Assembly: GCA_963695545.1 (NCBI GenBank) | Contig: OY968796.1 | Location: forward strand, 1,952,001-2,016,000 | DNA: 64,000 bases | Direction: 5' to 3' | DNA from: Terriglobia bacterium | Lineage (GTDB): Bacteria; Acidobacteriota; Terriglobia; Acidiferrales; UBA7541 | In this document: piece after piece, positions 10,372 to 57,298 of the stretch | How positions within the stretch are numbered: position 1 is the first letter of the stretch | How the letters are laid out: every line of letters starts with the position of its first letter | Made by a program: the position numbers and the translations under genes | The notes under the pieces: generated by a model | Databases searched by the model: none | Told to the model about the DNA's origin: nothing | Seen by the model: the letters and a program-made list of their open reading frames with translations, nothing else

Positions 10372-10637
10372 TATTCGAATAACCGAAGCATTATCATTGA
10401 CATACACGGAAAAAGAGTGCTAAGATCTTGCGTGAGCTGCAAACGCATTCCCGCGCCCGACAAGTCGCTTGATGCCAACGCCGCCGTCGGTCCTTTTCTC
10501 GCCCATAACCCGTGTGGAATGAGCAGTTCTGAAAAATCGCATTTTAACCCCTTTAGAACGAGCACTTCTGGCGCAAAGGACTTAAAGTCCTTTAGAATGA
10601 GCAGTTCCAAAAAACACCCGGGGGTAGGGGGGTACCC
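10372..10637 (+). repeat. Copy A of the dispersed promoter + 39-bp-period palindrome-array element
   Basis: TATTCGAATA 10372-10381; TTGACA 10397-10402, N18, TGc-TAAGAT 10421-10426; GAAtGAGCAgTTC units at 10517, 10556 and 10595; ends AAAAAACACCCGGGGGTAGGGGGGTAC. 10494-10637 aligns to the reverse complement of 46277-46419. Confidence 0.85.
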
Positions 10638-28410: not shown

Positions 28411-28487
<77 letters not shown>

Positions 28488-46276: not shown

Positions 46277-46611
46277 GGGGTGCCCCTGCCCCCCGGGTGT
46301 TTTTCGGAAGTGTTGAAATGATTCGACTTTAAGTCCTTTGCGCCAGAACTGGTGATTCTAAAAGGCTTAAAATGCAATTTTTCAGAACTGTTGATTCTGG
46401 AAGGGTTACGGGCGAAAAACCGGCGGATTGGAGAGACTGCTGGCAGGTTTTGGCCTCCGCGCGGTGAAGAGGCCAATCCGGGGATTGGCGTTCCCGGGGC
46501 GGCTTCGGTCGGGAGTGGGTGCTTGCGAGTCATTCCGCAGCATAACACATTTATTGGCTGGATGTCAACAGATACTCTGTGGATATCTATTCGAAGAGAG
46601 TTTTCGAATAG
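46277..46611 (-). repeat. Copy B of the dispersed promoter + 39-bp-period palindrome-array element
   Basis: 46277-46419 is the inverted homolog of 10494-10637; minus-strand TTGACA(46568-46563)-N18-TATGCT(46544-46539); CTATTCGAA...TTCGAATAG upstream of the -35. Confidence 0.85.
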
Positions 46612-51082: not shown

Positions 51083-51296
51083 TTGGCAGAATCCTCGATG
51101 CCGTGCAGATTTTTGCCCGATCCCAAAACCATGGGAACGGGAAGCGCCGAGCGGGCACGGTTTCTCCAAGCCGAATGGAGCGCCCGGCGGGAAACTATAG
51201 TTTGAAGGATTTGCGAGCTTCGCGCAACCCGCAAGATGGGGAATTATATACATGACTCCCGTAAGGAAACAAGGGACTTTAAGGGCGATTATGGAC

Positions 51297-51325
51297 TTGA
51301 CAAAGTAACGCGAATCTGGTAGCCT
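51297..51325 (+). promoter_or_regulatory. Putative sigma70 promoter of the IS1595 transposase
   Basis: TTGACA(51297-51302)-N17-TAGCCT with a TGn extension. Confidence 0.55.
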
Positions 51326-51343
51326 CTGTGTAGTGAGGCTGCC

Positions 51344-52327
51344 ATGAACCTAATAGACGTTACACGAAAGTTCGCCAGCAAGGAATCCTGCTTAGAGTAT
51401 CTCGCCGCGATGCGCTGGCCGAATGGTATCACGTGCACACACTGTGGCGTTGTGGGCGACGATCAATTCCGCAAGTTCACGACACGCGAGACTGAGCGCA
51501 CTCGATTCAGCGCGAAGAAACAGAAGACGGTCACCGTCCGCGTGCCGTCGCGCAGCCTGTACGAGTGCAAGGGATGCGGCTATCAATTCAGCGCGACCAC
51601 GGGCACGGTGTTCCACGATTCACACTTGCCGCTCGAAAAGTGGTTTATGGCGATTGCCCTGATTCTTGAAGCGAAGAAAGGAATCAGCGCCCTACAGGTC
51701 TGCCGCAACCTCGGAATCCCTGAGAGTAGCTACCGGACGGTCTGGTATCTCTGCCATCGCATCCGTGAAGCCACACAAGAGACCGGCTTACTATCCGGCA
51801 TCGTTGAGACGGACGAGACCTATCTGACGCCTAAGAAGCCCCGCAAGGGCGCTCCCAAGGTCAAGAAAGACAAGCGAGACGTGGTGCTCGGAATGATCGA
51901 ACGCGGCGGTCGGCTGCGAATGGTTCCGATGCGAGACGCGAAGATGTCGATAATCGAGCCGATCATTGCGAAGCACATCGCTCCCGATGCCACGCTGCAA
52001 ACCGACGAACATCCCACATACGCGATAATCGGCAAGCGCCGCTTTCCCGGCAGGCACCGCGCGATCAATCACATGCGCAGTTACGCGGACGGCGACAATA
52101 CGACGAACTCAATTGAGAATGCGTTTTCGTTGCTCAAGCGCGGCGTGTACGGCACGTTCCACAAGGTTTCGATAAAGCATCTTGGCCGGTACTGCAACGA
52201 GTTTTCGTATCGGTTCAACCGACGCGGGAATCAGTCGGAGATGTTCGGCGAGACCGTGAAGGGATTGCTAAAGGGCCAGCCGTTGCCGCTCAAGAAGCTG
52301 ACTGCTTCCGAAACATCGGAGTCTTAG
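51344..52327 (+). CDS. IS1595-family transposase
   Basis: RWP.G..CTHCG...YECKGC..QFS..TGT.FH zinc ribbon, KGISALQ HTH, VETDETY, TDEH, NSIEN, YCNEF.YRFNRR. Confidence 0.96.
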   Translation: MNLIDVTRKFASKESCLEYLAAMRWPNGITCTHCGVVGDDQFRKFTTRETERTRFSAKKQKTVTVRVPSRSLYECKGCGYQFSATTGTVFHDSHLPLEKWFMAIALILEAKKGISALQVCRNLGIPESSYRTVWYLCHRIREATQETGLLSGIVETDETYLTPKKPRKGAPKVKKDKRDVVLGMIERGGRLRMVPMRDAKMSIIEPIIAKHIAPDATLQTDEHPTYAIIGKRRFPGRHRAINHMRSYADGDNTTNSIENAFSLLKRGVYGTFHKVSIKHLGRYCNEFSYRFNRRGNQSEMFGETVKGLLKGQPLPLKKLTASETSES

Positions 52328-52445
52328 GGCCGCGCTTGCCGGAAGTTTTTATATCGCTTTGCGGCTTCGGCTTTGAGCCGAGCAGCGCCGCGAGCACCGC
52401 GTCAAACTTCTTCTTTTCGACCAGCACGCTTTTCTTTGTTTTCAT
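52290..52445 (-). CDS. Small basic protein convergent with and overlapping the transposase 3' end
   Basis: MKTKKSVLVEKKKFDAVLAALLGSKPKP... (51 aa). The longer ORF-track version reads through the nested IS1 junction. Confidence 0.5.
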   Translation of the reverse strand: MKTKKSVLVEKKKFDAVLAALLGSKPKPQSDIKTSGKRGPKTPMFRKQSAS

Positions 52446-52503
52446 GAGTTTTCCACATCCTGAATGGATTTCCACAGCCATGTCGGAAAAATCCGGTAGT
52501 GAC

Positions 52504-52776
52504 TCATTTTGAATTGGGCCTTTGGGACAGGTGGCAGGGAGTCTTGTGGACGCCGGAGACCGGACGTGTGACATAAAACACGGGTTCGACGGCGGAAATC
52601 TGCTTAACCAAGAAGGGGGCCAACTGGAACTGCTTATAGCCCTCCTTCAGGGCATCGTCATACGAAGAAAAGAAGTCCACAATAGTTTCCCCGTGAATAA
52701 GCACGAACTTGCCCTCGTGCGCTTTCAGCTCGGGGAGGTTCTTCCGGTAGGTTTCCAGCTCTTTTTCTAAGGCCAT
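52504..52776 (-). CDS. Small passenger protein (DUF5678-like)
   Basis: LEKELETY...L.AHEGKFVLIHGETIVDFF.SY.DAL..GY..F...PFLVKQI; stop codon lies inside the TIR. Confidence 0.65.
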   Translation of the reverse strand: MALEKELETYRKNLPELKAHEGKFVLIHGETIVDFFSSYDDALKEGYKQFQLAPFLVKQISAVEPVFYVTRPVSGVHKTPCHLSQRPNSK

Positions 52777-52871
52777 CTTGGCACCAGTTGTTGTCACTTT
52801 TATACCTCAGATGCCAGAAGAGATGCGGGGATAGTACAAAACGGTTTCTCTGGGCGCAACACCAATTTGCC

Positions 52872-53720
52872 CTACGCGGCCTTCTCTTTCGACATCTCCA
52901 TTATACGCACCAGCTCCTCAATTGTCCAAACGTGGTCCGAGACTCCCGCTTCCATCGCAGGGGTTACACGTAGTGTTTGATGCACGCGGCAGAAGTTATA
53001 GTGCATAAAGTGGAGTGCCACGGCCCAACGGTGATTGTCTAGCTTCTTAGAGAACGCATTTGTGAGCCGGGTAAAACGGCGCATCTTCATCCGCATAGTT
53101 AGGTTCTGGCGTTCCACGAAGCTGGTAGAAATGTGCTTTGGATTCGGCTGACCTACAATTTTGGTTTGTCTGCACCCGATATAGTCTGCGGGACTATATC
53201 GGACTTCTCCTTGTGCCCGATCTGAGCCGTACATCTTGACGAGCATCGCGTAGTCAATCTCAGTACCGAATGCGAATTCAACCGCCTGCAAATAGGCTTT
53301 GTGACCATCGCTGGTCAACTGCACGCGATTGGCAAGGCGCGAAGCCAAGTCGTACATGAAATGCTGCGCGTGCCAAGCGTTGCGGTCACCGATTCGCCAG
53401 CAGGGAACCAACTTTGTATCCGCGCAAATAGAAACCCAGGTCCACACGTCGCCGAACCCATGCTTGCCGCGCAGATCGTTCGGCACGTTCTTTTCTTTGG
53501 CATAGCAGAAGGACCAGATTTCATCGCACTGGACGCGCTTGCAGGGAAGATTAACCAACACGCGGCGCTGGTATTCTTCGCAAGCTTGGCCAATCGCTGG
53601 CATGAGCTTTAGGACAGTATTAAAAGCCACATCGCACATACGGGCCGTGGCTCGTAGTGAGTTCCCTTCTACGAGTGCCGAGATGATCTGCGCTTGCTTC
53701 TCTTTGTTTAAGCGATTCAT
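52872..53720 (-). CDS. IS1-family transposase (single ORF)
   Basis: LVEGNSLRATAR HTH, VQCDEIWSF, QLTSDG, TSFVERQNLTMRM..RRFTRLTNAFSKK. Confidence 0.93.
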   Translation of the reverse strand: MNRLNKEKQAQIISALVEGNSLRATARMCDVAFNTVLKLMPAIGQACEEYQRRVLVNLPCKRVQCDEIWSFCYAKEKNVPNDLRGKHGFGDVWTWVSICADTKLVPCWRIGDRNAWHAQHFMYDLASRLANRVQLTSDGHKAYLQAVEFAFGTEIDYAMLVKMYGSDRAQGEVRYSPADYIGCRQTKIVGQPNPKHISTSFVERQNLTMRMKMRRFTRLTNAFSKKLDNHRWAVALHFMHYNFCRVHQTLRVTPAMEAGVSDHVWTIEELVRIMEMSKEKAA

Positions 53721-53728
53721 AATGTCTG

Positions 53729-53758
53729 ATTATGCTTGAGCGGCTCAAGGTGTGTCAA
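53729..53758 (-). promoter_or_regulatory. IS1 transposase promoter with a palindrome in the spacer
   Basis: Minus strand TTGACA-N18-CATAAT; spacer holds CTTGAGC-N-GCTCAAG (53735-53749); ATG only 8 nt after the -10. Confidence 0.6.
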
Positions 53759-53924
53759 GAGAAAAACGCAGAATCTTACGAACACTTGGCGCTCACTAAG
53801 TGCTGTACTGTCAATACGATGTGGATACACCTGCGTAATATCCGCAGGGTGCTCTGCAAGTTCGGCGTGCTAGACTAAGTCTTCTCTGCTAGAATCGGCG
53901 TGTCTGATACGGACATGGAGGTTC

Positions 53925-54446
53925 ATGGTCATGGATGATAAACTAAGTGGCGCTGTCGAAGTGCTGGTCGCGCAATTGAACGATCAAATGAAACAAGTGG
54001 CTGACACAAAAAGCACGATCAACGCGCTATTACGAAGTATGGGGAAAGAGGCGATGTTTCAGGATGTAAACGTGGAACAAGCGTCCGCGATTCGTCCAGA
54101 CCAGTTCTACGGAAAGGGTCTCGCAACTGCTGTTCAGGACTATCTCAAACGGCGAAAGCAAGCGTGCGGAGCGGATGAAATTCTCCGGGGACTAGAACAA
54201 GGTGGTTTTGATTTCCGCTCAGTATCATGGAAGGAAGCTGATCGTCGTCGGAGTCTATCAATCTCATTGGCAAAGAACAGCGTCACATTTCATCGGCTTC
54301 CCAACGGGACATTCGGTCTGCTGAGTTGGTACCCTGAGAATATTGGGAAGCAAGAGCCGCCAGCAAACAAAAAGCGCGGGCGGAAAGCGAAGAAGGCCAA
54401 GCCATCGGCTGAGGACGCTACAAAGCCTGAACAGGGGAAACCATGA
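53925..54446 (+). CDS. Passenger protein: coiled coil, putative winged-helix (HARE-HTH-like) domain, basic tail
   Basis: GGAGG RBS; AVQDYL......EILRGLEQGG...SLSISLAKN...FHRLPNGTFGL..W. Confidence 0.65.
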   Translation: MVMDDKLSGAVEVLVAQLNDQMKQVADTKSTINALLRSMGKEAMFQDVNVEQASAIRPDQFYGKGLATAVQDYLKRRKQACGADEILRGLEQGGFDFRSVSWKEADRRRSLSISLAKNSVTFHRLPNGTFGLLSWYPENIGKQEPPANKKRGRKAKKAKPSAEDATKPEQGKP

Positions 54447-54598
54447 CCAGAAGGGATATGTGCCTAGATTGCCGGACGCCGTGCCTACCGAGCAGCCTAG
54501 GCCAAATTAAAGACAAGACCCGCTTCCAGTAACCTTTGCGGGGGAGCTGGAAGCGGGCCGTGGTAGGACGCAAAGATCGCGGCCATGAACCGTCGCGA

Positions 54599-54835
54599 TT
54601 ATACCTTTTTTGTTGACCAACGTGCCTTAGCTGCTTTACGGGCGATGGCCTTTCGCTTACTGGCGGAGAGACGCGCCGCTCGCGCCTTTCCGCCTTTAAG
54701 ACCACCTTTGCGCCCGATCTGGGCGAGATACTCTTTGACGGATGCTGTCTGTCTTGGTTCTTCTGTGGATAGCCGTACGATCTCAGCGGCCAGTTGATTT
54801 GGGTCTTTCGGGAGCGGCTTGCTTGAGCGCCTCAT
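54599..54835 (-). CDS. Small basic KGG-motif (histone-H1-like) passenger protein
   Basis: PKDPNQLA..IV, YLAQIGRKGGLKGGKARA..LS...R..IARKAAKARW. Confidence 0.75.
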   Translation of the reverse strand: MRRSSKPLPKDPNQLAAEIVRLSTEEPRQTASVKEYLAQIGRKGGLKGGKARAARLSASKRKAIARKAAKARWSTKKV

Positions 54836-54967
54836 GCATCACATGATGCACAATTCTTCGGGGCGTTTCAAGCCCCCTAAAAGCTCAAAATGAGTCACTA
54901 CCAAAAATCCGCTTGCAATTTCATTCGTATTCTCTTCGCCTACCCCTGACTGAAACGCAAGCAAGGC

Positions 54968-54997
54968 TTGACAGATTTATCCCGAACAGCGTAGATT
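54968..54997 (+). promoter_or_regulatory. Putative sigma70 promoter of the non-coding cassette
   Basis: TTGACA(54968-54973)-N18-TAGATT(54992-54997). Confidence 0.6.
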
Positions 54998-55004
54998 GCA
55001 CCCT

Positions 55005-55105
55005 AGTAACAGCGACGGCCCACCACCCCAAGGGGTAGTGAGCCGGTTGCTGCTGCCACGCTAGCACGTGGCGGAAGTTCTGGGCGCATGCTACCGAGAA
55101 TTCCG
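55005..55105 (+). ncRNA. Three adjacent hairpins 5' of the tRNA-like genes
   Basis: CAGCGAC-GGC-CAC-ACCCC/GGGGT-GTG-GCC-GTTGCTG; GCCACG/CGTGGC; GGAA-TTCT/AGAA-TTCC. Confidence 0.45.
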
Positions 55106-55147
55106 TTCCTCGTCAACGTGGTTTCCGAATTTATTTTTTGTCGCACG

Positions 55148-55216
55148 GGGGGCGCCAGGTAGGGGACGTCGGTTTCCCACCCATTTCCCCTGGGTTCAAA
55201 TCCCAGCGCCTCCACC
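55148..55216 (+). ncRNA. D-armless tRNA-like / tmRNA-TLD-like mini-RNA with G3:U70
   Basis: Acceptor GGGGGCG/CGCCTCC followed by ACC; T-arm CTGGG-TTCAAAT-CCCAG; one internal hairpin GGT(A)GGGGA/TTCCCACC. Confidence 0.6.
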
Positions 55217-55231
55217 CATGCGACTTTCAAC

Positions 55232-55325
55232 GGCGGGATAGCTTTAACGGTAAAGCCCCGGATTTATAATCCGAGGGTCTCCATGCGTACACATGGAGAT
55301 GTCAGTTCGACCCTGACTCCCGCCG
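55232..55325 (+). tRNA. Atypical long-variable-arm tRNA with TAT (UAU) anticodon and G73
   Basis: Acceptor GGCGGGA/TCCCGCC; D-arm GCTT/AAGC with GG; anticodon arm CCGGA-TTTATAA-TCCGA; 26-nt variable region with TCTCCATG/CATGGAGA stem; T-arm GTCAG-TTCGACC-CTGAC; 3' end G-TCA. Confidence 0.8.
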
Positions 55326-55530
55326 TCAAACTTTTAAGGACACTAGGAGAACGCACCTGATTTCGGATTGGAAACAAAGGTCTGCATCGAGTCTCCCCAA
55401 CCCCGCGTCGCCGGGATTGCCTGACTTGGCTGGTACCAGCCGAGCACCCGGTACCGGCTCTGACTGTATATGGTATCACTATAATTTCGTCAAGGGAAAA
55501 CGATATGTCTCGTATCACACCGAGGTCAAC

Positions 55531-55875
55531 ATGATGAAACGCGTTTTTTTCTCGGCCTTAATCGCAGTTTGCATTGGTCAGGCTCCGCTTCTCGCGCAGG
55601 TGCGGCCTCCGGGTCGGCACCATCGAGACGACTTAGAACAGCGATACAACGATCTCAAATGTGCGCTCGTGATCGTTCAAAATGGGGGCGAATTCGGGAC
55701 AGGAGTTTTCATTGGCTCGGACGGAGATATTGCGACTGCCTCTCACGTCCTGGGCGACCGTACGTTCACATCTCAGGCCGACGGGACGATAACGACAAAC
55801 CTTGCGTTGCCCGCGTCACTCACCGTCATCGACAGCCAAGGAAAATCGACTACGGTGCCGGGAACATTGACCTGA
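55531..55875 (+). pseudogene. Secreted trypsin-like serine protease, 3'-truncated by IS3
   Basis: GAGG RBS, signal peptide, GTGVFI and ATASHV (catalytic His). The frame enters the IS3 end at 55868 and no Asp or Ser motifs remain. Confidence 0.75.
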
Positions 55876-55932
55876 CCGGGGTTTTTTGTACCAGCGGGAG
55901 TGAGAGAGAATTCACTCTGGAGGGAAGCTGGT

Positions 55933-56211
55933 ATGCCGATGAGGAGATACAAGCCGGAGCAGATCGTCACGCTGCTGCGGCAAGTTGAAGTTGAAATCGC
56001 CAACGGAAAGAGCACCCCACAAGCCTGCAAGGAAGCCGAGATCACCGCGCAGACCTACTACCGCTGGCGGAAGGAATACGGCGGCCTGAAGTTGGATCAA
56101 GCGAAACGCCTCAAAGAGTTGGAGCGGGAAAACGCCAAGCTGAAACGGTTGGTGGCGGAGCTTTCGTTGGAGAAGCAAATTCTGAAGGATGTGGCAGAGG
56201 GAAACTTCTAA
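55933..56211 (+). CDS. IS3 transposase OrfA
   Basis: RYKPEQIV..LR, TYYRWRKEYGG, RLKELERENAKLKRLVA; slippery heptamer G-GGA-AAC at 56199-56205. Confidence 0.92.
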   Translation: MPMRRYKPEQIVTLLRQVEVEIANGKSTPQACKEAEITAQTYYRWRKEYGGLKLDQAKRLKELERENAKLKRLVAELSLEKQILKDVAEGNF

Positions 56212-56234
56212 GCCCTGAGCGGCGACGTAGCGCG

Positions 56235-57077
56235 GTGGAGCATGCACGCGAGAGCTACCAAGTATCAGAGCGGCATGCCTGCCGGTTGCTGGGGCAGTGG
56301 AGAGGGACACAACGCTACGAGGTGATCCACCGAACGGATGAAGACGCGCTGACGCGAGACATCGTGGCGCTGGCCAGCGAGTACGGGCGCTTCGGCTATC
56401 GGAGGATCACGGCGCTGTTGCAAGCACGGGGCTGGTATGTGGGCAAGGATCGGGTGCAGCGGATCTGGCGGCGCGAAGGGCTGAAAGTGCCGCAGGGACA
56501 AAGGCCGCGAGGAAGGCTGTGGTTGAACGACGGATCGTGTGTTCGTCTCCGGCCGGAACGAGCCAACCATGTGTGGAGCTACGATTTCGTGAGCGCGATG
56601 ACCCACGACGGCCGAACACTGCGAATGCTGACGCTGATCGACGAATACACGCGGGAGTGCCTGGCGATCCGCGTGGCGAGAAGGCTGGGGAGATACGAAG
56701 TGATCGAAGCGCTGGCGGACGTGATGCTTTACCGGGGAATTCCGGAACATATTCGCTCGGACAACGGCCCGGAGTTCGTGGCCAAGGAGCTGAGGAGTTG
56801 GCTGGCGAAGGTGGGAACGGGGACGCTGTACATCGAACCGGGAAGCCCTTGGGAGAATGGCTACTGCGAAAGCTTCAACGGGAAATTGCGCGATGAATGT
56901 TTGAACGGAGAGATTTTTTACTCGCTGAAGGAAGCGCAGATCGTGATCGAGAAATGGCGGATGGTGTACAACACGCTGCGTCCGCACTCAGCGCTGGGCT
57001 ACAGGCCACCGGCGCCGGTGGCCTGTAGCCCCTTGGTGCCGCCAATTCTCGGTTCGCCGTCGACGGCTGTGATGTAG
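56235..57077 (+). CDS. IS3 transposase OrfB (DDE), probably fused to OrfA by -1 frameshift
   Basis: FGYRRI, VWSYDF, IRSDNGPEF, PGSPWENGYCESFNG, RPHSALGY. Confidence 0.95.
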   Translation: MEHARESYQVSERHACRLLGQWRGTQRYEVIHRTDEDALTRDIVALASEYGRFGYRRITALLQARGWYVGKDRVQRIWRREGLKVPQGQRPRGRLWLNDGSCVRLRPERANHVWSYDFVSAMTHDGRTLRMLTLIDEYTRECLAIRVARRLGRYEVIEALADVMLYRGIPEHIRSDNGPEFVAKELRSWLAKVGTGTLYIEPGSPWENGYCESFNGKLRDECLNGEIFYSLKEAQIVIEKWRMVYNTLRPHSALGYRPPAPVACSPLVPPILGSPSTAVM

Positions 57078-57298
57078 ACTCTCTCATTCACCGTGGTACA
57101 AAAACTCGGGCTGGTCATAAGGACAAGCCTAAATCAAGGGAGTCAACTATATAATTCCCGCAAGATGCGCGCGCGTGACGTGATTCAAAACCAATTTGGT
57201 CGCACGCTGGCGCGACGTGGCTGACGGTCGCCAACCGCGGGCGCGTCCGGTACAATAAATGGCGTGAACCCATCGATAGAAAACGCATAGGAGCTGCC

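Follow-up and report, generated by a model that had tools for sequence, protein, structure and literature searches.

We analyzed a 64,000-nt stretch of the genome of a Terriglobia bacterium (contig OY968796.1, positions 1,952,001 to 2,016,000 of the forward strand; below, the window), which contains an insertion sequence of the IS1595 family, IS1595_B, ending in an unusual transfer RNA (tRNA) gene, tRNA_B. This gene combines the anticodon UAU with a long variable arm and may constitute a private means of reading AUA codons by the element. The element comprises the following features (window coordinates).

51270–55334, plus strand: insertion sequence IS1595_B (approximate boundaries), whose right end holds tRNA_B.
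51344–52327, plus strand: IS1595-type transposase of 327 amino acids (Pfam DDE_Tnp_IS1595, 2.3e-32; Zn_ribbon_IS1595, 6e-10) with ATA at codons 4, 203, 228, and 277.
52290–52445, minus strand: small conserved open reading frame (ORF), antisense to the 3' end of the transposase gene (MK..VLVEKKKFDAVL...IKTSGKRG), with ATA at codon 32.
54968–54997, plus strand: promoter-like site, TTGACA-18-TAGATT, 10/12 matches.
55148–55217, plus strand: partner RNA, a minihelix of 69 nt resembling the acceptor domain of tmRNA, 14 nt upstream of tRNA_B, with a T arm, an acceptor stem containing G3·U70, and CC directly after A73.
55232–55328, plus strand: tRNA_B, class II tRNA gene of the 7/5 form, anticodon UAU at 55265–55267, G73 at 55325, trailer TCA, CCA not encoded.

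tRNA_B is a real, conserved long-armed tRNA gene with the anticodon UAU. ARAGORN calls it as a tRNA(tat) of 97 nt (55231–55327), and the Rfam tRNA model RF00005 assigns it 50.2 bits at a gathering score of 29 (55232–55325). The minimum-energy fold is the cloverleaf (−46 kcal/mol, z = −6.1), and none of 200 shuffled sequences equals it. The acceptor stem has 7 bp (GGCGGGA/TCCCGCC) and the T stem 5 bp (GTCAG/CTGAC); refolding into an 8/4 form is ruled out, as the eighth acceptor pair would place U8 opposite C65. The anticodon loop contains U33 (55264), TAT (55265–55267), and A37 (55268), and the stem of the variable arm is formed by 9 bp, eight Watson–Crick and one G·U, with a loop of 6 nt. Position 14 is U rather than A, positions 27 and 43 form a C·A mismatch, and G73 is directly followed by TCA in place of CCA; the latter is encoded by every canonical host tRNA gene inspected and is absent from the tRNA_B gene. 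Every structural feature listed in the original prediction (the 7/5 form, U33, TAT, A37, the long arm, G73, the C27-A43 mismatch, TCA) can be read directly in the sequence, and ARAGORN, Rfam, and folding agree with it.

To find relatives of tRNA_B, metagenomes were scanned with a degenerate pattern derived from its T arm and 3' acceptor strand. Six of the 26 matched loci hold true relatives (five distinct sequences), and one more, in locus L096, was reached independently through the transposase, yielding a family of seven distinct sequences in which 94.0% of cells pair. Seven pairs change on both sides, of which the variable arm accounts for three, the T stem for two, and the D and anticodon stems for one each; this covariation is reached in none of 500 shuffles, and slid controls gave 0–1. 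As the variable arm covaries, its late insertion into a class I tRNA was ruled out. All seven members retain C-1, the C27·A43 mismatch flanked by C26-G44, G18G19, U33, and A37, and the T loop is kept as well, whereas G73 and the 3' acceptor strand are fixed by the search pattern itself in five of the seven sequences. Five distinct sequences have the anticodon UAU, while UAG and GUA occur once each. The original prediction named a lack of conserved homologs, combined with absent processing or aminoacylation, among the grounds for its refutation; what emerged is a seven-sequence family with covarying stems.

The family is rare in reference genomes (2/401 in the class sample), and BLAST found no relatives in 60 related genomes or in 400 genomes of the phylum; the 60 related genomes yielded four short matches to the D and anticodon arms (33–41 nt, 80–85% identity, E 0.003–0.005). 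No relatives were found in plasmid and phage collections, or with two sequence patterns in viral contigs. As for the other pattern loci, 17 of the 26 look like chance matches, including the ARAGORN "tRNA-Gly(ccc)" in L080, and three (L072 and L077, which are identical, and L084) contain a tRNA-like RNA of approximately 105 nt with the acceptor stem (GGCGGGA...TCCCGCCG) and T loop of tRNA_B and a different interior. Four irregular long tRNAs (taa, gta, cgg, taa), including the GUA family member, lie on one strand of L086 (2667–3684). In L081, a CapRel-like RelA/SpoT gene (1335–2504; PADLOC PDC-S33, 357.8 bits) is located directly downstream of a pair of a partner RNA and a tRNA(UAU), and a DUF5678 protein is also encoded there; the relative in L082 has a Panacea antitoxin gene nearby. 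The CapRel-like gene contains six ATA and five CTA among its 390 codons, and the ATA and CTA counts beside relatives outside insertion sequences are too few to read.

The carrier belongs to the IS1595 family, since its transposase combines the DDE_Tnp_IS1595 domain with an N-terminal zinc ribbon. The left edge was set by homology to a second copy in the host genome (copy A) and to L010, and the right edge by homology to L096, ending at 55332. The transposase of copy A (contig C1, 343647–344630) is 92.7% identical to the window copy at the protein level, and 1170 bp of DNA are shared at 86.5%. When an IS1-like element nested within IS1595_B is left out, the minihelix starts approximately 296 bp, and tRNA_B approximately 380 bp, past the last base shared with copy A. 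Locus L096, with a transposase 65% identical, reproduces the order and strands of the window: transposase, small antisense ORF, promoter-like leader, partner RNA, and a tRNA_B homolog. The latter is 85.7% identical over 112 nt, and homology to the window stops 7 nt past G73, at 55332. The conserved unit of copy A and its close relatives extends exactly to the 5' end of a tRNA(UAU) on the opposite strand. As the ends of copy A differ from those of the window and L096, there exist at least two element layouts, each ending in a tRNA(UAU). Target duplications of the IS1595 family are 8 bp long, and the candidate duplication here is TAAGGAAA (51262–51269) and TAAGGACA (55335–55342). It replaced an initial guess, ACTTTAAGG, which lies inside the element according to homology to copy A and L010.

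The association of this transposase with class II tRNA(UAU) genes extends to other genomes. Within 1.5 kb of the transposase, and with L100 and L114 (unpublished genomes) omitted from the counts, a class II tRNA(UAU) was found in 5/5 close loci with intact flanks from metagenome-assembled genomes and at 13 of the 17 full-length transposase loci of the class sample; L015 (46% identity) has a tRNA(tat) of the 8/4 form. At 37–42% transposase identity, a tRNA(UAU) is present at one of 20 loci, and N-terminally short transposase loci have a tRNA(tat) in 0/10 cases. Many IS1595-type matches in the class sample start near query residue 65 and contain one in-frame stop, suggesting a subgroup with a split or frameshifted N-terminal zinc ribbon. 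The linked tRNAs in the counted loci have bodies of three kinds (7/5 A-type, 7/5 B-type, and 8/4-like), and a fourth, Ser/Leu-like class II, occurs only in the excluded L100. All of them are class II and all have UAU, with G73 in all but L111.

The A-type is represented by tRNA_A, the second long-armed tRNA(tat) of the host genome (C1, 344768–344860), and by the tRNAs of L009–L014 and L093–L098. It shares with tRNA_B the 7/5 form, the class II body, UAU, G73, the position at the right end, and the company of the same transposase family with the same ATA codons. In contrast to tRNA_B, the A-type genes are on the opposite strand with the 5' end outward, have a Ser-like 3-bp D arm, mostly carry C in place of the universal U at position 55 (TCCGAAT), and mostly encode CCA. 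Sequence similarity between the two types is confined to the anticodon arm.

The genes of the element contain the matching codon at fixed positions. Among 25 copies of the transposase, 21 have ATA at codon 4 and 20 have it at codon 277. The small antisense ORF is kept in 8/8 elements examined, and it has ATA at the same isoleucine position in all eight, outside the transposase frame. The 20 tRNA-linked transposases contain 13.0 ATA per 1000 codons, compared with 3.8 in 19 tRNA-less relatives from the same class, and the sole member of the outgroup with a tRNA(tat), L136, has 15.4. The ATA share of isoleucine codons is 2.81 times higher in the linked than in the tRNA-less group, despite the higher GC content of third codon positions (0.672 vs. 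0.596), whereas the respective ratios for eleven other A- or T-ending codons are 0.62–1.09. Hence, tRNA_B most likely serves the mobile element rather than the host, and a translating role is favored over that of a pure decoy.

tRNA_B is probably expressed. A metatranscriptome run from another study contains a 208-nt contig that matches 55091–55298 with no differences and covers two thirds of tRNA_B in addition to the minihelix and the spacer; these positions are what the run covers of the 1201 bases compared, gaps elsewhere are uninformative, and contigs cannot reveal RNA ends or CCA. The stretch is also present in four DNA runs, which may be the source of this assembly. Upstream, a leader similar to that of the window (TTGACA ... 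AGTAACAG ... GGCCCAC) was recognized by eye in L096.

The partner RNA is labeled by ARAGORN, oddly, as a "tRNA-Gly(tcc)" (55148–55216). Against the Rfam tmRNA model, both of whose ends it matches, it scores 37.6 bits and falls short of the gathering score (47); a segment of 312 nt in the model is represented here by 17 nt, and no mRNA-like reading frame is present, so that it is not a tmRNA. The host ssrA tmRNA has the identical acceptor stem, G3·U70 and A73 included, whereas the acceptor stems of the host tRNA-Ala genes are unlike it. The minihelix also precedes the UAG member of the family (L068), whereas upstream of the other members lie odd tRNAs of different kinds. The minihelix might serve as a handle for processing or as a helix that accepts alanine. 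A likeness of 28–31 nt to its 5' half in six to seven genomes was discarded: the sequence looks protein-coding, no tRNA or tmRNA is called in seven loci, and Rfam finds nothing in the four scanned.

The host genome is a single contig of 4.16 Mb (60.6% GC) with 56 ARAGORN calls, 54 tRNA-type and two tmRNA-type; the window accounts for three tRNA-type genes, namely, a tRNA(cat), the 69-nt "tRNA-Gly(tcc)", and the 97-nt tRNA(tat). The first of these is the regular AUA decoder.

28411–28487, minus strand: host tRNA-Ile2(CAU), detected by ARAGORN and Rfam, which reads AUA once modified with lysidine.

Its acceptor stem and D arm are common to the host tRNA-Ile(GAU), with C4-G69 and C5-G68, and the lysidine synthetase TilS is encoded in the genome (180.1 bits vs. 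a cut-off of 93.6). Both observations bear out the earlier proposal that this gene is a tRNA-Ile2(CAU) and that the host does not need tRNA_B for isoleucine. In bacteria without TilS, e.g., Mycoplasma mobile, AUA is read by a gene-encoded tRNA-Ile2(UAU), whose class I tRNA-Ile body replaces the lysidine route. In contrast, TilS and tRNA-Ile2(CAU) are both present here, and hence tRNA_B does not represent such a replacement. The ATA codon has a genome-wide frequency of 3.4 per 1000 codons, or 6.9% of isoleucine codons, in 2254 long ORFs. The host has one SerRS gene and two nucleotidyltransferases of the PolyA_pol family, candidates for CCA addition.

Among the other tRNA-like sequences of the host is a Ser-like body at C1 2260191–2260283 (GGAGAGG...CCTCTCC-G-CCA), the anticodon arm of which is a 7-bp stem with a UUCG tetraloop and contains no anticodon. 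Two ARAGORN calls, "tRNA-Ser(gct)" of 99 nt at 419492–419590 and "tRNA-Ala(ggc)" of 86 nt at 3061455–3061540, have poor stems, are GC-rich, and look false.

The isoleucine identity set of E. coli comprises A73, C4-G69, C29-G41, a short variable loop, and the anticodon-loop bases A35, U36, A37, and A38. tRNA_B has the latter four bases, while elsewhere it has G73, G4-C69, G29-C41, and a long arm instead. Serine identity in bacteria, as outlined in PMC9976931, rests on how large the variable arm is and owes nothing to the anticodon, with additional contributions of G73, G1-C72, G2-C71, and G30-C40, whereas G73 blocks LeuRS and TyrRS. tRNA_B has the complete set as given there, i.e., the long arm, G73, and all three pairs, and it has none of the three base pairs by which, according to the same source, E. 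coli tRNA-Sec rejects EF-Tu. It is not tRNA-Ser-like in the D arm and tertiary shape (4-bp stem, 8-nt loop, no A14). Given that the serine determinants are present and most isoleucine ones are missing, the original suggestion of a non-isoleucine residue, possibly serine, remains the best guess from the gene sequence.

The residues that 19 tRNA-less relatives from the same class have at positions where the linked clade has ATA provide another view. Isoleucine fits better than serine in three of the eight ATA columns, as against 12 of the 14 control columns with ATC or ATT (p = 0.052). Five of the eight columns (codons 201, 203, 228, 244, and 277) are polar or small in the relatives. Within the linked clade, ATA alternates with serine and threonine codons at codon 203 and with serine at codon 244. 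An earlier outgroup of 13 distant homologs favored polar residues, and the better one, the 19 sequences from the same class, is mixed. The column pattern hints at a non-isoleucine or mixed reading but is not decisive.

tRNA_B is a new 7/5 form of the allo-tRNA(UAU) theme. Allo-tRNAs (Mukai et al., Nucleic Acids Res 2017, PMC5389517) are described there as combining a 12-bp acceptor branch of the 8/4 or 9/3 type with a long, tetraloop-closed D stem similar to that of tRNA-Sec, and the UAU group as the most abundant; a pseudogene was noted to overlap a transposon-related ORF, and links to transposons or toxin–antitoxin systems were suggested. Similarly to the UAU allo-tRNAs of soil Acidobacteria reported in that paper, mostly with G73, tRNA_B has a long variable arm, UAU, and G73 and lies near transposon-related and toxin–antitoxin genes; its anticodon arm, CCGGA-CUUAUAA-UCCG, is also found in three rows of the allo-tRNA table as consulted. 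The combination of a long arm (here, a 9-bp stem) with non-serine anticodons (UAU, UAG, GUA), typical of allo-tRNAs as presented there, holds for the whole family. On the other hand, tRNA_B has a 7-bp acceptor stem and a 5-bp T stem, in which two pairs change on both sides, instead of the 8/4 or 9/3 branch, and a 4-bp D stem with an 8-nt loop instead of the long stem with a tetraloop. Comparison with the allo-tRNA set, proposed along with the original prediction, thus sets the family apart by its branch, and four family motifs have no occurrences in that table as consulted. The sections of the paper drawn on here describe no fixed AUA codons in a linked transposase.

Two other systems are comparable in part. 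The polycistronic irregular tRNAs tRNA0, tRNA1, and tRNA2, as described in PMC5389517, also place a degenerate or odd tRNA-like RNA in tandem before a suppressor-type tRNA, with RNA in soil samples; the partner here, unlike those, resembles the acceptor domain of tmRNA, and the sequences differ from those listed in the sections consulted, which make no link to an insertion sequence. The nematode nev-tRNA-Ile(UAU) (Hamashima et al., 2012, PMC3333845), in the sections drawn on, likewise is a class II tRNA whose UAU is mismatched to its charging identity and which tends to a rare codon. In contrast to tRNA_B, it is eukaryotic, derived from tRNA-Leu, charged with leucine, and not located on a mobile element. 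Among the literature matches listed, seen as titles and abstract openings, none describes a link between a transposase, a tRNA, and AUA.

We propose, with the chances of being right and wrong about evenly balanced, that tRNA_B is a private AUA-reading tRNA of an IS1595-family insertion sequence, with SerRS as the most likely charging enzyme. tRNA_B would be transcribed from the promoter-like site of the element together with the upstream minihelix and then excised, and CCA would be added by a host nucleotidyltransferase. The mature tRNA would read AUA, which is kept in transposase codons 4 and 277 and in the small antisense ORF. Charging by SerRS appears most likely because the body has the long variable arm, G73, G1-C72, G2-C71, and G30-C40, and since SerRS ignores anticodons, tRNA_B would work in any host. 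It would, at least partly, insert serine where the host tRNA-Ile2 inserts isoleucine. With either residue, production of the proteins of the element would be tied to its own tRNA, possibly affecting transposition.

Several observations weigh against this proposal. Firstly, the element itself is incompletely delimited: the candidate target duplication is imperfect (7/8 positions equal), and no convincing terminal inverted repeats were found where they were looked for. No transposase domain was detected among 28 ORFs scanned beside five metagenomic relatives, on contigs as short as 1.6–6 kb, and two of the five relatives not associated with a transposase carry the other anticodons, UAG and GUA. 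Secondly, the tRNA deviates from canonical ones, as A14 is absent and the C27·A43 mismatch present in 7/7 family members, CCA is encoded in 0/7, unlike in the canonical host tRNAs, and the D arm (4-bp stem, 8-nt loop) differs from that of the host tRNA-Ser genes (3-bp stem, 11-nt loop). The host has no RNase Z above the family cut-off, the best match scoring 37.3 bits vs. 292.95. Thirdly, the compared sequences are kin and their counts do not represent independent events, and the ATA columns are mixed, with hydrophobic ones that fit isoleucine at codons 4, 89, and 269 (isoleucine scores 0.95, 3.05, and 1.95). The RNA support is a single contig, for which DNA carry-over into the library is possible. 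Finally, as reported in PMC5389517, six allo-tRNA(UAU) species converted to amber suppressors all lacked activity in E. coli, and toxicity was seen for two of them.

A narrower version, in which the element has its own seryl-tRNA(UAU) and AUA is read as serine in its genes, i.e., a private codon reassignment, is less probable than not. Were it true, the sequence of the active transposase would depend on the tRNA of the element, any host would suffice because SerRS ignores anticodons, and the host would pay with serine-for-isoleucine errors at its few AUA codons.

It seems rather unlikely that tRNA_B is a non-translating tRNA-like RNA, be it a decoy or regulator for tRNA-targeting toxins or defense enzymes or a DNA or RNA structure acting as the functional terminus of the insertion sequence. 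Such a role would agree with the location of the tRNA, which abuts the element terminus in both layouts, with the unencoded CCA, the lack of A14, and the conserved C·A mismatch, and with the neighborhoods in which L081 is followed by a CapRel-like toxin gene and L082 is near a Panacea antitoxin gene. The inactivity of the allo-tRNA(UAU) variants in E. coli and the transposon or toxin–antitoxin links suggested in PMC5389517 point the same way. However, it leaves unexplained why the UAU anticodon persists across four different tRNA body types and why enrichment and fixation in the linked genes are limited to ATA, and the family retains U33, A37, G18G19, and the T loop.

Phage tRNAs supply extra decoding capacity for codons rare in the host, and tRNA_B might by analogy be charged with isoleucine and add capacity for a codon rare in GC-rich hosts, with no recoding. 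We consider this improbable. UAU, A37, and A38 of the anticodon loop do suit IleRS, the ATA columns 4, 89, and 269 are hydrophobic in tRNA-less relatives, and the ATA enrichment requires only a decoder, whatever its residue. However, G73 stands in place of A73, and G4-C69 and G29-C41 are found where the E. coli IleRS set has C4-G69 and C29-G41; we know of no tRNA-Ile with a long variable arm. All linked body types are class II, which would be hard to explain were isoleucine the aim, and relatives have polar or small residues in five of the eight ATA columns. It is highly improbable that tRNA_B is a presently functionless passenger or pseudogene in decay: although the surroundings are scrambled by three insertion sequences, the family is rare (2/401 genomes of the class sample), and several features are non-canonical, the seven sequences show compensatory changes in the stems of the D, anticodon, variable, and T arms, the promoter-like site is intact, and an exact contig is present in an RNA library.

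Two further insertion sequences lie in or next to IS1595_B.

52495–54902: nested IS1-like cargo element; its 18-bp terminal inverted repeats are perfect, and it is flanked by an 8-bp duplication, AAAAATCC; weak Pfam match to IS1 transposase (0.0011).
55868–57117, plus strand: IS3-family element with inverted repeats (Pfam HTH_Tnp_1, rve, rve_3), downstream of IS1595_B and outside the tRNA unit.

The nested element is situated between the transposase and tRNA_B, 57 bp upstream of the promoter-like site. A contig from a DNA metagenome joins the sequence across the IS3 element (55863 to approximately 57124), which implies either a form lacking this element or a repeat passed over by the assembler. 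A 22-nt inverted repeat (51239–51260 and 57138–57159; 91% complementary) encloses the entire island of insertion sequences, and the enclosed sequence is single-copy in the genome. A dispersed repeat of approximately 85 bp has about 19 copies in the genome, two of them in the window (10500–10587 and 46327–46414), and one copy adjoins the left end of IS1595 copy A.

Long-armed tRNAs with UAU are the commonest group of allo-tRNAs in soil metagenomes as reported in PMC5389517, and their role has been under question since 2017. The location at the end of an insertion sequence, combined with a fixed matching rare codon in the transposase and the small ORF, gives this role a concrete form. If the tRNA indeed supplies or recodes AUA for the element, a transposon would thereby have a novel means of controlling its own protein synthesis, or of making it portable, and such elements would be a natural source of host-independent missense tRNAs.
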